Virus record (IMG/VR): IMGVR_UViG_2667527975_000009
Span: 1-47,773 of that record
DNA length: 47,773 nt
Direction: 5' to 3' (one strand)
Origin: a virus
Lineage: Duplodnaviria; Heunggongvirae; Uroviricota; Caudoviricetes
Made by a program: the position numbers and the translations under genes. The number at the start of each line of letters is the position of its first letter. The stretch's first letter is position 1. The notes below the pieces were generated by a model. It was not told the origin of the DNA. It ran no database searches and saw only the letters and a program-made list of their open reading frames with translations. Below, piece by piece: positions 1,267 to 35,036 of the stretch.

Positions 1267-3441
1267 CTATCTAATCCTGAACATTACAATTGGAGCAGAG
1301 CCAGAAGATAAAGGGCCTGACCAATGGTATCTAATTCTGAAAGAAGACTCACTTGGAGTTCCGATAATTTCTATTGGACTTAAAGTTGCACCTTCTGCAG
1401 AACCAGCAGGTTGTCTAAACCCCAACACAGCAATCTGGTTTGGTGTTGGGGCATACAGAAAATTATGCTCAATATCAACCTCGTTAGATTCGCTACCTGT
1501 TGGGTTTGGCATATTCCACTCAATATAATCGTCAGTTGATTTCCCATTTATTGAGTTTCCAACTGTTGCCATAATCGTCCACGTACACGTCCTGTTAAGG
1601 GCTGCCATTCTATCACCTAAAAACCTATTATAACCATTTGCGCCTGAAGTGATTAATCTTATATTCTCTGATGCACATGTGCCAATGCTGTTAAATCCAG
1701 TGCAATCAGAAGAAAGCCCCTTCGCAGTTATATCTACGCTGTTCGCAAAACAAATTGTTGTTGAATTTACTGCATCGCGAATAAGAGCAGAACCCGAAAA
1801 CAAATTATCACACGAACCTCTTATATTATTACCACCGCCGGATAAGTAACATAAATTTCCTTTTATCCTCTTGGATGTAAAAGTAACATTGTTATTGTCA
1901 CCAGTAACAGAAAGAAGCGAGGCTTTAATAGGGGCATTGTCACTCTGTAACTGACCAATTTGGTTTATTGTAACTACATTGTTGTTGCCTGATATAGCTA
2001 TCTGATACCCATCATCATCAATTGAAGGTGAATATCTTTGTGCTTTTATATTGATGTTAAGTGTCCAGATTGTACCGTTATCCAGAAGCATGTCGCGGAG
2101 AGGAGAAATTGAATCGCCAGTGTAGTTATCTGGCATTCTTCCGCACGCCCTGGCTTCTGCGATGGCAACAACACCATGTGCCCCGTTGGTAAACCAGTAA
2201 CCACCTAAACTATTATCAACACACACATGCCTCGCATTGAATCGGTTAACACCCAGCGTCTTAAATCCATAGCCATAATACGCAGCATATACATGGATGT
2301 AATTTATATCGACATGTCCTGTATAAGGAGACTGATTATCAAGAACAATTCCATGACATGGTTCTCCGGGATAAAGAAGGCTTTGTTGGCTTGTTGCTGT
2401 TAATCTTGCGCTGTAAGGAGGAAGTCCACACAGGCCAAAAACAATATAATCCATGTTAATATCACCTGGCCCCCTGAACACAACCCCCTCTCTCCCTGAA
2501 ATTCTTCCCGTTATCCTCACTTCAGAGGCGTGTTCCTGATTATCATGAAATGATCCATACCCCTCTGAATAGAGAGCATGTTCTGCAACATTATTAATCT
2601 CAACGTCAATGTGGTACATGCTGCCGAATATTTTAATGGCAGTTCCATAGTCATTGTTAACAGTGTCGCAAGTTCTCCATGAGTTTGTATCTCTTTGCAA
2701 GTCAAGATAATTACCATCAATGGTCATATCTTTTATGCTAAATCCATATGGCGCATCAGACAGATTTTCCACAACGCCAAAGCCATGTGTTTTAAATACA
2801 TCTGTATTACTACCTTTTTTAACATACAGAAATGTTGCTCTCTTTCCAGAGCCTTTATGATGAACGCCTGTATAAAGAATGATAGGAGAATCTATTAAAT
2901 AAACACCTGGAGGGTAAAATATTTCCCCGCCACCATTATTAAAAGCAGCTAATGCTGCGGCATTAATGGCATCAGAATCTGATGTCAATCCATCTGCTTT
3001 AGCTCCATAGTATTGAGGTGTTTTCCTGATTGCATCGTAAACCGTTGAAGCGCCGAAACCGATATATTTACTACCATCTGTACCGCCAATAAGTAATTTA
3101 AACTGATCCGGGTCATACTTCAGCACATTCGGAAAATAGAACTGCTGTGTACCATACGCATCATAAACAGCCATAGAATGGCCTTGCACGGTTACGAATT
3201 TGGCAATCTGTCCGTTATATACCGGATATCCAGCAGCGTTAATGATTATTGGTTGCGAAACAGGAACGTGAGAACCGTCTTCATTCTCCACATAAACCTG
3301 AATCTGGTTTTCAGGATTTACTGGGTCAGTGTCAATTTTACCGATATAAATTTTGCCATTAGCTACGGCTTTAAAAGAGCGGGCCATAGTGAAGAGTTGC
3401 GAAGGCATGCTCACTACAACATTGGCTGTAATGTCTGTCAT
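1267..3441 (-). CDS. Tailspike (P22 gp9 / HK620-type head-binding domain with a divergent receptor-binding domain)
   Basis: 724 aa. The first ~115 aa ([46 protein letters not shown]...) match the conserved head-binding domain of P22-like tailspikes; the remainder is unrelated to the P22 or HK620 sequences I recall. The gene is visibly more AT-rich than its neighbours. Confidence 0.9.
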
Positions 3442-3499
3442 TTAATTTGCTCCAGATACAAGGAATGGCCGCAGTGATGCATTATTAACCAAAAAATAC

Positions 3500-3512
3500 G
3501 ACCACCGTGGTC
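3500..3512. promoter_or_regulatory. Mnt-operator-like palindrome
   Basis: GACCAC-C-GTGGTC, a 13-bp palindrome between the divergent mnt and tailspike starts; it resembles the P22 Omnt core as I recall it. Confidence 0.45.
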
Positions 3513-3576
3513 TTATTGAGGATGCAACCAGCAGATAATAAGATGCCGATCCACTCACAAGAGCGAGGCATCAAGA

Positions 3577-3828
3577 ATGGGAAGAGATGACCCGCAATTT
3601 AATCTGCGGCTACCTTACGAATTAAAGGAAAAACTAAAACAGCGAGCCAAATCCAATGGCCGCTCTCTTAATTCAGAATTAGTTCAGATAGTGACTGATG
3701 CTGTATCAAGGCCATCCAAAATTTCAGGCTATCGAGACGATGCGGAACGCATCGCTGATGAGCAATCAGAGCTTGTTAAGAAGATGGTGTTTGATACGCT
3801 GAAGGATTTGTACAAAAAACCCACCTGA
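3577..3828 (+). CDS. mnt: Mnt repressor (ribbon-helix-helix, Arc/MetJ family)
   Basis: 83 aa, MGRDDPQFNLRLPYELKEKLKQRAKSNGRSLNSELVQIV...DAERIADEQSELVKKMVFDTLKDLYKK; near-colinear with P22 Mnt. Confidence 0.85.
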   Translation: MGRDDPQFNLRLPYELKEKLKQRAKSNGRSLNSELVQIVTDAVSRPSKISGYRDDAERIADEQSELVKKMVFDTLKDLYKKPT

Positions 3829-30232: not shown

Positions 30233-30919
30233 ATGGATAAATACGAACAAAGACGACTAAGGCTGATAGAGATAAGAGACCGATTCTGTAATGGAAAGGC
30301 CTCAGAGTTGGCTCGTCGAATAGAAAGGGAACCATCATACGTTTCCAGGATGCTGTATCCGGAAGGAAAAAGCGGAAAAAAACGCATTGCTGACGATATG
30401 ATGGAACTAATTGAAAAATCTTTTAATCTCCCACGCGGATGGATGGACATGCTTGCAGATGGTAAAGCTGGAGCTACGGACCATCTTGAGTTTGCGGGTA
30501 ACGTTCGTGCGGGTTTTGTTCCGGTAATTGGTGAAGCCGTTTTGGGAGTTGATGGCTCAGTGGATATGATTGAATTCAGATCCGGTTGGTTAAGCATCTA
30601 CAGCGGCGATAAAGATGCTTACGGTCTGAAGGTTAAGGGTGACAGCATGTGGCCAAGGATTCAGTCAGGAGAATATGTTGTTATTGAACCAAATACGCCA
30701 GTACATCCAGGTGATGAAGTCTTTGTAAGGACAAAAGACGGTCACAACATGATAAAGATCATGAACAAAACAAGAGACGGTGATTATCAGTTTAGTAGCA
30801 TAAACAGTGATCACCGCCCAATCACTCTTCCTGTTGAAGAAGTTGATAAAATGCATTTTGTTTCAGCTATTGTGAAACACACCAGGTACGTAGACCAGGA
30901 CGATCTGCCAAAAGTTTGA
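30233..30919 (+). CDS. cI: CI-type prophage repressor (HTH plus S24 LexA-like peptidase domain)
   Basis: 228 aa; the C-terminal GDSMWPRIQSGEYVVIE region is an S24 autocleavage domain. Confidence 0.9.
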   Translation: MDKYEQRRLRLIEIRDRFCNGKASELARRIEREPSYVSRMLYPEGKSGKKRIADDMMELIEKSFNLPRGWMDMLADGKAGATDHLEFAGNVRAGFVPVIGEAVLGVDGSVDMIEFRSGWLSIYSGDKDAYGLKVKGDSMWPRIQSGEYVVIEPNTPVHPGDEVFVRTKDGHNMIKIMNKTRDGDYQFSSINSDHRPITLPVEEVDKMHFVSAIVKHTRYVDQDDLPKV

Positions 30920-31230
30920 GGATAAAGCAGCAAATGTTTATACCCGGCATAGTAGTCGCTGTTGTAATCATCTGCTTCATATGGGCAAAGTTATCTCCTG
31001 TAAGCTCTAAGCATACAGCTGAACTCATGAGGAAGAAGCATCTTATACATGAGGCAGAATCGATAATTAAAAAGTTCAAAGGCATGTCATACGACGACAT
31101 GTCATCAGAGCAGATTGCTATGTATAAATGCGCCATTAAGCGCCTTGACTACTTAAACGGACTCAAACCCAAACACACCCCAGTAGAATCAAAATTGCCG
31201 CAATGGCCAAGCAATCCAAATAGCTTCTGA
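30916..31230 (+). CDS. Small membrane protein co-transcribed with cI
   Basis: 104 aa with an N-terminal transmembrane helix (IPGIVVAVVIICFIWA); overlaps the cI stop and is followed by a terminator. Confidence 0.6.
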   Translation: MRIKQQMFIPGIVVAVVIICFIWAKLSPVSSKHTAELMRKKHLIHEAESIIKKFKGMSYDDMSSEQIAMYKCAIKRLDYLNGLKPKHTPVESKLPQWPSNPNSF

Positions 31231-31241
31231 CATCTCCTTTC

Positions 31242-31266
31242 AGCCCGCAAAGCGGGCTTTTTTATA
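31242..31266 (+). terminator. Intrinsic terminator after the cI operon
   Basis: AGCCCGC-AAA-GCGGGCT followed by TTTTTTAT. Confidence 0.8.
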
Positions 31267-31283
31267 TCAATCCAAAAAATTAA

Positions 31284-31366
31284 TTACCTGAAAATTCAAG
31301 CAGGTAAACTCTCACATCAATTTTATTTACCTACAGGTATAGACAGAGGTTTTACCTGTAGGTATA
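31284..31366. promoter_or_regulatory. OL operators with pL
   Basis: TTTACCTACAGGTAT (31326-31340), TTTACCTGTAGGTAT (31351-31365) and TTACCTG...CAGGTAA (31284-31307), the same half-sites as OR. Confidence 0.65.
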
Positions 31367-31409
31367 TTTTAAGCCATCAGCAGGACGCACTGACCACCAT
31401 GAAGGTGAG

Positions 31410-31439
31410 GCTCTTAAAAATTAAGCCCTGAAGAAGGGC
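31410..31439 (+). promoter_or_regulatory. nutL (boxA plus boxB hairpin)
   Basis: GCTCTTAAAAATTAA GCCCTGAAGAAGGGC; the boxB stem-loop matches lambda nutL. Confidence 0.85.
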
Positions 31440-31637
31440 GGCATTCAAAGCAGAAGGCTTTGGGATTGGATGAATGAGCAGGCTGATGCTCGACCAATGT
31501 ATAAACAGCGCTCATGGCAAGCAGTAACCAATCTGCGCCTCAAGACAGCGTCACTGGTAGTGCGGGCGCTCTAACCAGTAAGCCGGGGTTCAGCGCCGGC
31601 CATCCAATCACCAAAGCTAACTGACAGGAGAATCCAG

Positions 31638-31964
31638 ATGGATGCACAAACACGCCGCCGCGAACGTCGCGCAGAGAAACAGGCTCAATGGAAAGCAGCA
31701 AATCCCCTGTTGGTTGGGGTAAGCGCAAAACCAGTTAACCGCCCTATTCTCTCGCTGAATCGCAAACCGAAATCACGAGTAGAAAGCGCACTGAATCCGA
31801 TAGACCTTACGGTGCTGGCTGAATACCACGAACAGATTGAAAGCAACCTGCAGCGTATTGAGCGCAAGAATCAGCGCACATGGTACAGCAAGCCACGCAG
31901 TGAAATGGGTGTGACTTGTGTTGGTCGACAGAAAATGAAATTAGGCAGCAAACCACTTATTTGA
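31638..31964 (+). CDS. N: Antiterminator N
   Basis: 108 aa, MDAQTRRRERRAEKQAQWKAANPLLVGVSAKPVNRPILSL...; lambda N with an Arg-rich motif. Confidence 0.95.
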   Translation: MDAQTRRRERRAEKQAQWKAANPLLVGVSAKPVNRPILSLNRKPKSRVESALNPIDLTVLAEYHEQIESNLQRIERKNQRTWYSKPRSEMGVTCVGRQKMKLGSKPLI

Positions 31965-31972
31965 GGTGATAT

Positions 31973-32296
31973 ATGGAAGCATTAGTAGTAGAGCGAAGCG
32001 AGGATGGCTACTGGACGCACCCAGAATACGCCAACCTGTTTGGGGATAGAGAGGTAATTTCAGCTGATGAGTTCAGATCTTTCTGCAAGCAGCATGGCAT
32101 TGAATCATCAATTGTTGAAATGGAAAACGACAACAATCAAACGGTAATTGACGCGTATTTTGAAGATGGGAATCAAAACATCAGTGGATGGGAGCCAAGC
32201 ATGCCAGATGGAGAAGGATGGTTTGTCGGTTCGATTCACGATACAGAAGACGGTCCGATCTGCGTTTGGTTCAGGAATGTAGATAAGGACGAATAG
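31973..32296 (+). CDS. Acidic hypothetical protein directly downstream of N
   Basis: 107 aa with a high Asp/Glu content; no recognisable homology. Confidence 0.55.
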   Translation: MEALVVERSEDGYWTHPEYANLFGDREVISADEFRSFCKQHGIESSIVEMENDNNQTVIDAYFEDGNQNISGWEPSMPDGEGWFVGSIHDTEDGPICVWFRNVDKDE

Positions 32297-32430
32297 TCGG
32301 CCTTTATTTTTGGCATAAACAACAGAATAAACATTGCACTGTGTATTCATTCCAACGAGTGAATACACGGAGCAATGTCGCTCGTAACTAAACAGGAGCC
32401 GACTTGTTCTGATTATTGGAAATCTTCTTT

Positions 32431-32456
32431 GCCCTCCAGTGTGAGGGCCTTTTTAT
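32431..32456 (+). terminator. Intrinsic terminator (tL-like)
   Basis: GCCCTC-CAGTGT-GAGGGC followed by CTTTTTAT. Confidence 0.6.
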
Positions 32457-32520
32457 ATGCATACCAATAACGCTTCACTCGAGGCGTTTTCGTTATGCAA
32501 TCAAACAGAAGGAGCATCCT

Positions 32521-32691
32521 ATGCAACAGTTCGCTATTGCAGGGGCGGCATCGGTTCGCCCTTTCAACCCGATTTTATCGGTACAGCATTCACGAAAAAA
32601 TATTTTAACCGGAGCAGACTTTAAACAACCAAGAATGAAAAGCTTGCTCGAAAAGCTTTGGGATATTTTGAAACAACAAGGCCGTCCATGA
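32521..32691 (+). CDS. Small hypothetical protein
   Basis: 56-aa ORF with AAGGAG 7 nt upstream, coupled by an ATGA overlap to the next ORF. Confidence 0.35.
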   Translation: MQQFAIAGAASVRPFNPILSVQHSRKNILTGADFKQPRMKSLLEKLWDILKQQGRP

Positions 32692-32846
32692 GTTTTACAG
32701 ATAACTGGTCAGACGAAGAGTTCATTCGTCAGATGAAAGAATTAATCGGTAACGAAGGAGATATTCATGTCACTTGCAACCACAGTGAAGGAGAGCAAGT
32801 TACAGAGACGCATGTACACGCAGAAAGCTCTCTGGTATCGCCATAA
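32688..32846 (+). CDS. Small acidic hypothetical protein
   Basis: 52-aa ORF from MSFTDNW, translationally coupled. Confidence 0.3.
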   Translation: MSFTDNWSDEEFIRQMKELIGNEGDIHVTCNHSEGEQVTETHVHAESSLVSP

Positions 32847-32945
32847 TGGTGACCGCGAAGGAATGCGGGTATGCCTTAATTTGTCCCGAGTCGAAGTATT
32901 AAATCAGCGTTATTTCCTTGGGCCGTGTCCATTCTGAGGTGAATT

Positions 32946-33653
32946 ATGGATTTGAACAAATTCGATGAGCCATTCAGCCCTGAAGATATCGAATGGCGAA
33001 TACAGCAAAGCGGTAAAACACGCGATGGCAAAGTGTGGGCTATGGTGCTGGCTTATGTCACGAACCGGGCAATCATGAAACGCCTGGACGATGTTTGCGG
33101 CAAAGCAGGATGGAGCAATGAATACCGCGATATTCCCAACAACGGCGGCGTTGAATGCGGCATATCAATAAAGATTGATTCCGAATGGGTAACCAAATGG
33201 GATGCTGCTGAAAACACGCAGGTAGAAGCCGTCAAAGGTGGTCGTTCCGGTGCAATGAAGCGCGCTGCCGTTCAGTGGGGAATCGGTCGGTATCTGTATA
33301 ACCTTGAGGAAGGTTTCGCACAAACATCTCTCGATAAAAAGCAGGGGTGGCACAGGGCAAAACTGAAGGATGGAACAGGATTTTACTGGCTCCCTCCATC
33401 ACTGCCGGGATGGGCAATCCCAGCATCAGATAACAAACCATCACCAGAAAATACCAACCAGAAATCTCCATCGGTTGACTGCGAACAAATCCTGAAAGAC
33501 TTCAGCGATTATGCGTCAACAGAAACTGACAAGAAAAAACTCATCGAGCGTTATCAGCGTGACTGGCAATTAATGGCTGGAAACGAGGAGGCGCAGGCTA
33601 AATGCGTTCAGGTAATGAACATCAGAGTTAACGAGCTAAAACAGGCGGCATAA
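32946..33653 (+). CDS. Rad52-like single-strand annealing protein
   Basis: 235 aa; the N-terminal motifs GWSNEYRDIPNNGGVECGISIKID...AAVQWGIGRYLY resemble Rad52/Sak-type recombinases; followed by ssb. Confidence 0.75.
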   Translation: MDLNKFDEPFSPEDIEWRIQQSGKTRDGKVWAMVLAYVTNRAIMKRLDDVCGKAGWSNEYRDIPNNGGVECGISIKIDSEWVTKWDAAENTQVEAVKGGRSGAMKRAAVQWGIGRYLYNLEEGFAQTSLDKKQGWHRAKLKDGTGFYWLPPSLPGWAIPASDNKPSPENTNQKSPSVDCEQILKDFSDYASTETDKKKLIERYQRDWQLMAGNEEAQAKCVQVMNIRVNELKQAA

Positions 33654-34177: not shown

Positions 34178-34726
34178 ATGAATCACTTGATGGTTGACCT
34201 TGAAACAATGGGCAACGGGCCATACGCGCCAGTTATTTCTATTGGGGCGGTATTCTTTGACCCGAATACCGGAGAAACAGGAGAAGAGTTCTCGGTAAAT
34301 ATCTCGCTTGAGTCATCAATGCGATATCGAGCGCGTCCTGACGCTTCAACGATTTTATGGTGGATGGAACAGAGTGAAGAAGCCAGAAAATCGCTAACCA
34401 GCAACACTCAGGAGCTTTCAACGGCTCTTTCATGGTTATCTGAATTCATCATAAAGAACGCTAACCACAAATTCGTTCAGGTTTGGGGGAATGGAGCATC
34501 ATTTGACTGCGTTATTCTCCGAAACAGTTATTCGCTGACAGGGCAGCCAGTTCCGTGGCAGTGGTGGAATGACCGCGACGTAAGAACAATCGTCGAGCTT
34601 GGAAAGGTAATAGGATTCGACCCTAAGCGAGATATGCCATTCAAAGGAACTCGCCACAACGCGCTTGATGATGCCATCCACCAAGCCAAATACGTTTCAG
34701 CGATCTGGAAAAAGTTAGCTAAATAA
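34178..34726 (+). CDS. 3'-5' exonuclease (DnaQ-like DEDD family)
   Basis: 182 aa with Exo motifs (DLETMG...; HNALDDAIHQAKY). Confidence 0.75.
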   Translation: MNHLMVDLETMGNGPYAPVISIGAVFFDPNTGETGEEFSVNISLESSMRYRARPDASTILWWMEQSEEARKSLTSNTQELSTALSWLSEFIIKNANHKFVQVWGNGASFDCVILRNSYSLTGQPVPWQWWNDRDVRTIVELGKVIGFDPKRDMPFKGTRHNALDDAIHQAKYVSAIWKKLAK

Positions 34727-34742
34727 TCAACAGGAGAAAACC

Positions 34743-35036
34743 ATGCCAGCGCCTCTGTATGGTGCGGATAACGCGCGCCGCTGTTCCGGCAATTCCGTAT
34801 CGGAGGTGCTGGATAAATTCAGGAAAAACTACGATCGGATAATGTCGCTACCGCAGGAAACGAAAGAGGAAAAGGAATTTCGCCACTGTATATGGCTTGC
34901 AGAGAAAGAAGAACGAGAGCGAATTTACCAGACATCAATCCGACCATTCCGCAAAGCCACATACACCCACTTCCCTGAAATTGACCCGCGCCTGCGTAAT
35001 TACCGCTCACGCTATGGCGCTATCAGTAATGACTGA
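34743..35036 (+). CDS. Abc2-like anti-RecBCD protein (tentative)
   Basis: 97 aa beginning MPAPLYGADNARRCSGNSVSEVLDKF...; the size, position and N-terminus agree with P22 Abc2 as I recall it. Confidence 0.5.
   Translation: MPAPLYGADNARRCSGNSVSEVLDKFRKNYDRIMSLPQETKEEKEFRHCIWLAEKEERERIYQTSIRPFRKATYTHFPEIDPRLRNYRSRYGAISND

Follow-up and report, generated by a model that had tools for sequence, protein, structure and literature searches.

The small acidic open reading frame (ORF) at positions 31973-32296 (+ strand) of the Caudoviricetes DNA analysed here (IMG/VR record IMGVR_UViG_2667527975_000009; the whole stretch of 47,773 nucleotides is called the window) is, by its sequence, a gene that was already known. 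It is an allele of the published accessory gene orf184, which has a published phenotype as a trigger of abortive infection. Among the points that the present analysis adds are that the gene fills the ral slot as a precisely bounded cassette of one gene, exchanged with Ral or Nmad5 in sister prophages, and that the negative charge of its product is a conserved property of the family to which it belongs. A sequence-only reading of the window had singled out this ORF as a small, strongly acidic protein gene next to N and had proposed it as a candidate anti-restriction or anti-defence factor, possibly a DNA mimic. The ORF exists as described, with an ATG start and a length of 107 aa.

The identity of the gene follows from comparison with phage mEp213. 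The acidic protein is identical to mEp213 gp45 (AFM76385.1) at 102 of 107 positions, and the gene shares 98.5% nucleotide identity with mEp213_045. The gp45 sequence is that of UDP0184 in supplementary file 3 of Silas et al. (bioRxiv 10.1101/2023.04.06.535777), where it is named orf184. Those authors screened 200 accessory genes in wild E. coli hosts with 8 model phages, covering 45 phage-host combinations. Expression of orf184 was conditionally lethal in ECOR59, transposon suppressors of this lethality mapped to beta and gop of a P4-like satellite, and cloned gop-beta-cII recreated orf184-induced death in a lab strain (bioRxiv 10.1101/2023.04.06.535777). The gop-beta-cII genes are an abortive-infection system of the P4 satellite that restricts lambda and P1. 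Five substitutions separate the window protein from the tested one (V28A, S36Y, Q68P, D106A and E107A). Since none of them falls at a family-conserved position, the same trigger activity is expected of the window allele, and triggering of gop-beta-cII is presumably common to both. We note that the gene can be traced in this literature through supplementary tables alone: the motif SIHDTEDG returned nothing in the main texts, and orf184 is not named in the companion article in Nat Commun.

The acidic ORF is a real gene. It is preceded by a strong Shine-Dalgarno sequence (GAGGTGAT, 31963-31970, +, identified by sequence reading) that overlaps the TGA stop codon of N (31962-31964). It is under purifying selection, with a ratio of nonsynonymous to synonymous substitution rates (dN/dS) of 0.12 against a 93%-identical homolog; more distant homologs gave dN values of 0.1-0.4, with synonymous sites saturated. 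The exact allele (at least 97.8% nucleotide identity) occurred in 41 out of 5,426 complete E. coli genomes and was near full length in every one. Its small size alone speaks for an ORF that arose by chance, a reading to which we give practically no credence and which is refuted by the Shine-Dalgarno sequence, the dN/dS value, some 1,000 homologous clusters and the experimental activity of a near-identical protein. An antisense ORF at 32108-32368 lies wholly opposite the conserved coding frame, is unsupported and was rejected as spurious. The proposed richness in Asp and Glu also held, with 25 acidic residues out of 107 (23.4%) and only six Lys and Arg. The predicted product has a net charge of about -19 and a pI of 4.07, and it ranks highest in net acidity among the 79 window ORFs of at least 80 aa.

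The gene stands at the head of a lambda-type pL operon. A pL-like sigma-70 promoter (TAGACA-17-TATATT, 31340-31368, +, found by consensus scan and sequence reading), flanked by operator-like palindromes TACCTACAGGTA and TACCTGTAGGTA, sits 3' of the gene for an S24-type repressor, with a terminator (31242-31258) in between. Downstream of it lies a nutL site (31411-31439, +) consisting of boxA GCTCTTA, a spacer and boxB GCCCTGAAGAAGGGC. This site was assigned by reading the sequence, with the boxB hairpin also returned by the terminator and hairpin scan, and its two boxes match those of lambda nutL. The next gene (31638-31964, +) encodes a lambda-type antitermination protein N of 108 aa (Pfam N36, E=1.5e-26; phrog_271, E=8.7e-27) and ends 8 nt before the ATG of the acidic ORF. 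Because N ends so close on the 5' side and both pL and nutL lie upstream, the acidic ORF comes directly after N within the pL operon, as the sequence-only reading had placed it.

This position also bears on the timing of expression. A terminator scan of the + strand from pL to the end of the acidic ORF returned no terminator-like hairpins. The first pair consists of two tandem intrinsic-terminator hairpins at 32431-32498 (+; RNA fold of -27.6 kcal/mol, z = -5.5), and homologs of this sequence carry the annotation 'terminator' in HK97, mEp234, mEpX1 and Sf6. Because it is located 5' of the first predicted terminators after pL, the acidic gene is probably immediate-early, transcribed alongside N before antitermination is required. 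The earlier proposal of very early expression thus stands as far as position at the start of the pL transcript is concerned, and its timing is a prediction from consensus hairpins.

Comparison of the window with sister prophages showed that the acidic ORF is a swappable unit of exactly one gene. In the E. coli prophage L002, homology to the window ends at 31979 and restarts at 32299, and the slot between holds Ral (201 nt, L002 1935-2135). In a second E. coli prophage, L003, homology ends at 31965 and restarts at 32286 around a gene for an Nmad5-family putative nucleotide-modification protein (L003 1865-2488). In a third, L005, homology ends at 31978 and restarts at 32287 (junction) and 32336 (flank), and the slot holds DUF7167 and two small genes. 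The DUF7167 protein of L005 (1874-2062) is itself very acidic, with 62 aa, 27% Asp and Glu, and a pI of 4.2. In lambda, the homologous 3' flank of the cassette starts 4 nt past the ral stop codon. The cassette lies between N and the cIII and recombination genes, with borders that coincide with those of ral. Among 60 E. coli matches sampled to cover their spread, the slot held Ral in about one quarter and Nmad5 in about one tenth.

At the 3' edge of the cassette we found a conserved junction of about 40 bp (32287-32326, blastn) that recurs behind other cassettes in related phages. Window positions 32287-32326 match L005 2068-2107, after DUF7167, and positions 32290-32326 match mEp213 (L001) 2490-2524, after mEp213_050. 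The Sf6 region matched by window positions 32300-32454 is annotated as 'bsq4; boundary sequence' and 'terminator'. This junction is likely a recombination joint that shuffles cassettes after N. A wider set of loci, comprising about 32 close alleles among 80 viral contigs, had two different N types upstream and variable genes downstream, and about 29 of the 32 had no more than one small gene between N and the acidic gene. The acidic gene and ral are not mutually exclusive, as L033 has both.

The mEp213 gene belongs to the same family, phrog_1372, and lies in the same kind of accessory region after N, which holds ral in other phages. The arrangement differs in that a 75-aa gene separates N from orf184 in mEp213, whereas the ORF abuts N in the window. 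In mEp213, two different N genes occur in tandem (1953-2285 and 3438-3710), with small cassettes after each, and orf184 is placed behind the second. Lambda Ral resembles the acidic protein in being encoded by a small, early pL gene in the same slot with a homologous 3' flank, and Ral and orf184 were both reported by Silas et al. to cause death in some wild hosts. The proteins themselves are unlike: Ral has 66 aa and is Cys-rich and basic (pI 8.8), whereas the window protein has 107 aa and a pI of 4.1. A tblastn search with Ral matched ral genes only, not the acidic ORF, so no sequence similarity was found. Alleviation of type I restriction, the activity of Ral, is not known for orf184.

The sequence-only reading had held that the protein has no recognisable homology, which is wrong in general and true just for curated function libraries. 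No match was found in Pfam (best DUF2303, E=0.12, below threshold), NCBIfam or PADLOC, and a PDB sequence search returned chance matches alone. An Rfam search over 30900-33000 likewise gave only sub-threshold chance matches. However, the protein matched phrog_1372 ('unknown function') over residues 1-106 with E=1.7e-43, in addition to the near-identical mEp213 gp45. A profile built from 27 homologs found 993 cluster representatives at E<=1e-3, and the close relatives of the acidic protein account for 32 clusters in Enterobacterales. By tblastn the family was present in 84 phage genomes, annotated 'hypothetical' throughout, with hosts in Escherichia, Pectobacterium, Yersinia, Erwinia, Klebsiella, Burkholderia, Pseudomonas, Vibrio, Ralstonia and other genera. 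On these profile matches, the orf184 family numbers some 1,000 clusters from temperate phages of Proteobacteria.

Members of the family share two motifs, both present in the window protein: V-x-R-x3-G-x-W-T-H-P near the N terminus and the highly conserved W-x-P-x2-P-x-G-x-G-W-F-x2-S-I-H-D-T-E-D-G-P-x-C-x-W-x-R towards the C terminus. Homologs with 46-49% identity occurred in other early-region gene arrays, with ParB-HTH, HD-hydrolase-like and Zn-ribbon proteins as neighbours, and most neighbours at distant-homolog loci were without a Pfam match. One viral contig (L042, 3001-3320) carried a frameshifted copy of an orf184-family gene.

Extra modules, at either end of the orf184 domain, occur in about half of the 150 top-ranking family representatives. 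Fusion partners above Pfam thresholds were Lar_restr_allev (three), an Rv2179c-like DEDDh exonuclease (two), and Tad2-like, KTSC and DHH/DHHA1 domains (one each). The window protein itself had no Pfam match to Lar_restr_allev (PF14354) or Tad2-like (PF11195); both were seen solely in distant homologs, joined to the orf184 domain (P0064 at 38.8 bits and P0079 at 80.4 bits). The commonest partner was a module some 100 aa long that ends in KAGALILAEIERLDR, found in P0051, P0084, P0088, P0089, P0093, P0103, P0119 and P0061, and this module (alignment A3) had no Pfam, NCBIfam or PDB sequence-profile match. A second recurrent module, containing '...DVANFAMML' (P0076, P0078, P0142 and P0147), was without a Pfam or NCBIfam match. 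P0034 (305 aa) is a tandem duplication of the orf184 domain, a hint that the domain may act as a dimer.

Negative charge is conserved across the family. The net charge of 177 homologous domains was -14.2 ± 3.5, and acidic residues predominate at family positions 9, 27, 33, 44, 51, 53, 64, 69, 81, 90, 92 and 93. Conserved basic residues were limited to R8 and R101. To place these residues, CA, CB and charge-atom coordinates were transcribed from the higher-confidence AlphaFold 2 (AF2) model deposited by Silas et al. (pLDDT ~96-98). The modelled domain is a compact alpha/beta fold that measures roughly 22 x 32 x 41 A, and no solved structure with this fold was found. Of the 18 non-glycine residues that are at least 80% conserved across the family, 13 are buried in the model (V6, R8, W14, H16, W73, P75, P78, W83, F84, S87, I88, P95 and W99). 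On this model, the buried invariant residues define the fold and not an active site. A possible catalytic or metal site formed by H16, H89, C97 and D90 was considered and rejected as unlikely because H89 (to Q, G, Y or F) and C97 (to W) are replaced in many members; these residues belong to the buried core.

The conserved residues that are exposed in the model are P17, E92 and D93, with D90 and T91 half-exposed. D90-T91-E92-D93 form the tip of a beta-hairpin, and the conserved carboxylates E27, E51, D90, E92 and D93 are grouped within 7-11 A of one another. The two conserved basic residues appear to be structural, R101 forming a modelled salt bridge with E44 and R8 being buried in the core; R26 is salt-bridged to E33. 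Almost every acidic residue has high or intermediate exposure in the model, so the protein combines a high surface density of Asp and Glu with its low pI. The 22 carboxylates are evenly spread on the monomer model, with a resultant of 0.19 against 0.19 ± 0.08 for random surface positions (P=0.47) and a median nearest-neighbour distance of 8.7 A, measures that are crude because they use only CA, CB and charge atoms. The charge patterning suggested earlier as a sign of DNA mimicry was thus not seen, as this isotropic distribution shows no DNA-like stripe on the monomer to which this crude comparison applies.

From this evidence we tentatively favour, with a little less than even confidence, the reading that orf184 is a stoichiometric inhibitor or decoy whose anionic surface plugs a basic site of a conserved host protein. 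Under this proposal, the protein would be co-synthesised with N during the initial minutes of infection or induction, with no need for antitermination. It would be non-enzymatic and act stoichiometrically, since its invariant residues make up a buried core with no catalytic constellation. The acidic knob formed by D90-T91-E92-D93 with E27 and E51 would plug a basic, nucleic-acid-binding site on the host protein, and the likeliest target may be a defence nuclease or DNA-processing enzyme. The gop-beta-cII system would then be a guard that senses either the interference caused by orf184 or the orf184 protein itself, in a role resembling the response of PARIS or EcoR22I to Ocr. The slot shared with ral and Nmad5, the fusions to Lar and Tad2 domains, and the trigger behaviour favour a counter-defence role.

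Parallels exist for early phage proteins that are sensed in this way. Like orf184, Aop1, Abc1 and orf24 (Silas et al.) and Ocr, which is sensed by PARIS, are variable early proteins that host or satellite systems detect, with cell killing as the outcome, and their genes adjoin known counter-defence genes. Their sequences are unrelated to orf184, and the sensor of orf184 differs in being gop-beta-cII of P4-like satellites. The known anti-defence proteins Ocr, ArdA and Ral likewise provoke cell death (bioRxiv 10.1101/2023.04.06.535777). Neither lambda nor P1 has a homolog of the acidic protein by tblastn at E<=1e-3, as neither is among the nine matching Escherichia/Enterobacteria records, all of which were listed. 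Because gop-beta-cII restricts both phages, it must respond to more than orf184, and multiple triggers would fit a guard model.

Several points weigh against the decoy proposal. No inhibitory activity and no binding partner are known for orf184. In the screen of Silas et al., the validated counter-defence genes were Ocr, Ral, ArdA, IpII, orf48, 63, 92, 116, 126 and 148, of which the six numbered orfs were new and Ocr, Ral and ArdA are type I restriction-modification (R-M) inhibitors (bioRxiv 10.1101/2023.04.06.535777). Within the 45 phage-host combinations and 8 phages to which that screen was limited, orf184 was absent from the validated counter-defence or phage-sensitising genes. Triggering was demonstrated for the mEp213 allele rather than for that of the window, and orf184 is not the sole trigger of gop-beta-cII. 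The ral slot is guilt by position: genes whose function is unknown or unrelated also occupy it (DUF7167 and DUF2528, with kil nearby), and the acidic gene and ral are found together in one operon in L033. The immediate-early timing is predicted from consensus hairpins alone, and most fusion partners are modules recognised by no library. The earlier suggestion of an anti-defence factor is plausible and has partial support from context only, namely early position, the ral slot, conserved acidity, Lar and Tad2 fusions and the abortive trigger; the screen was negative for counter-defence.

Other explanations of the acidic protein were considered. A classical DNA mimic of the Ocr, ArdA or Arn type would pose as B-form DNA and thereby inhibit R-M enzymes, of type I or otherwise. 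The acidic protein resembles these proteins in being small, very acidic and, by prediction, expressed very early, and its negative charge density (-0.18 per residue) lies between those of T4 Arn (-0.10) and T7 Ocr (-0.24). Its location in the ral slot, the acidity kept across its family and its triggering of a cell-death system, as Ocr and ArdA also do, are in keeping with mimicry. However, no fold or sequence relation to known DNA mimics was found, the modelled charge is even with no stripe or face, and the monomer is merely about 41 A long. In addition, the Silas screen picked out Ocr, Ral and ArdA as inhibitors of type I R-M, whereas orf184 was not among its validated hits and no restriction alleviation is reported for it. 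Given the missing fold relation, the even charge on the modelled monomer and the lack of a type I R-M phenotype in that screen, we rate DNA mimicry as improbable, and the strict, Ocr-like form of the earlier suggestion is not sustained. A further explanation, in which the protein would bind or sequester a nucleotide or a small immune-signalling molecule as the sponges Tad1, Tad2 and Acb2 do, appears very unlikely. Fusion partners in homologs include Tad2-like, DHH/DHHA1 phosphoesterase and Orn-like DEDDh exoribonuclease domains that can act on nucleotides, and the domain has many conserved aromatics and an invariant Arg. Yet the aromatics and R8 are buried, R8 and R101 look structural, a surface with a net charge of -14 to -19 is ill-suited to anionic nucleotides, and no similarity to known small-molecule sponges was found.

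Two further explanations, which we consider about equally unlikely though somewhat less so than DNA mimicry, dispense with a role in immunity. In one, the protein is an adaptor of phage recombination or DNA metabolism that binds and modulates SSB, the annealase or an exonuclease, perhaps as an acidic partner resembling ssDNA. C-terminal fusions to the Rv2179c-like DEDDh 3'-5' exonuclease, the family of the window ORF at 34178-34726, point in this direction, as do a homolog fused to a DHH/DHHA1 phosphoesterase, the place of the acidic gene at the head of an operon with Rad52 annealase, SSB, exonuclease and Abc2, and the occurrence of family genes among recombination genes in PY54 and other phages. 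These nuclease and phosphoesterase fusions were seen in just 3 of 91 long homologs, however, and the cassette is swapped independently of the recombination module, occurring alongside modules of the Rad52, Erf (mEp213) and RecT-like kinds, while most phages with the same Rad52-SSB-exonuclease module have Ral or Nmad5 instead. In the other, orf184 is a non-immune host-takeover factor that inhibits host transcription, translation, division or a nucleoid protein, and gop-beta-cII senses the resulting toxicity. Early lambdoid pL genes do include such factors, kil and cIII are nearby, and no counter-defence phenotype is reported for orf184. The spread of the family over phages of Enterobacterales, Pseudomonas, Burkholderia and Vibrio suggests that its target is conserved. 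However, orf184 is conditionally lethal, and the dependence of this lethality on gop-beta-cII, seen with both suppressors and reconstitution, argues against general toxicity; the slot common to ral and Nmad5 and the Lar or Tad2 fusions of some homologs also fit host takeover poorly.

A bolder extension of the decoy proposal, possible but doubtful in our judgement, is that the orf184 domain defines a large immediate-early anti-defence family with a fold absent from solved structures, that its acidic hairpin blocks a conserved immunity or nuclease protein of the host, that gop-beta-cII is its dedicated guard, and that the KAGALILAEIERLDR module and other fusion partners are further counter-defence modules. 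Were the family to inhibit a host defence, its domain would rank among the commonest uncharacterised counter-defence domains of proteobacterial temperate phages, and gop-beta-cII would gain a defined 'guarded' pathway. Sister prophages with Ral, Nmad5 or orf184 in one slot offer natural isogenic comparisons. D90-D93 with E27 and E51 form the single exposed conserved site to mutate, and the fusion partners may indicate the pathway.

The operon continues after the acidic gene with cIII-like, Arf-like, Rad52 annealase, SSB, DEDDh 3'-5' exonuclease and Abc2 (anti-RecBCD) genes, on to the integrase. The cIII-like ORF (32521-32691, +, MQQFAIAG...) is annotated as cIII in mEpX1 and as 'hypothetical' by PGAP. 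It overlaps the start of a 62-aa ORF (32658-32846, +) that matches phrog_2123 and, weakly, the Erf cofactor Arf, and the two lie directly 5' of the Rad52-type annealase. The exonuclease (34178-34726, +) is DEDDh and Rv2179c-like, and is followed by Abc2 (34743-35036, +); the distant homologs P0077 and P0081 both carry an exonuclease of this family joined to their orf184 domain. On the other side of pL, the S24/LexA-type cI repressor gene occupies 30233-30919. Its stop codon is overlapped by a 104-aa ORF (30916-31230, +) with one predicted transmembrane segment, and the terminator at 31242-31258, a strong one, comes next. Because its position equals that of rexAB in lambda, this ORF is a candidate for a moron that is expressed in the lysogen and serves exclusion or defence.
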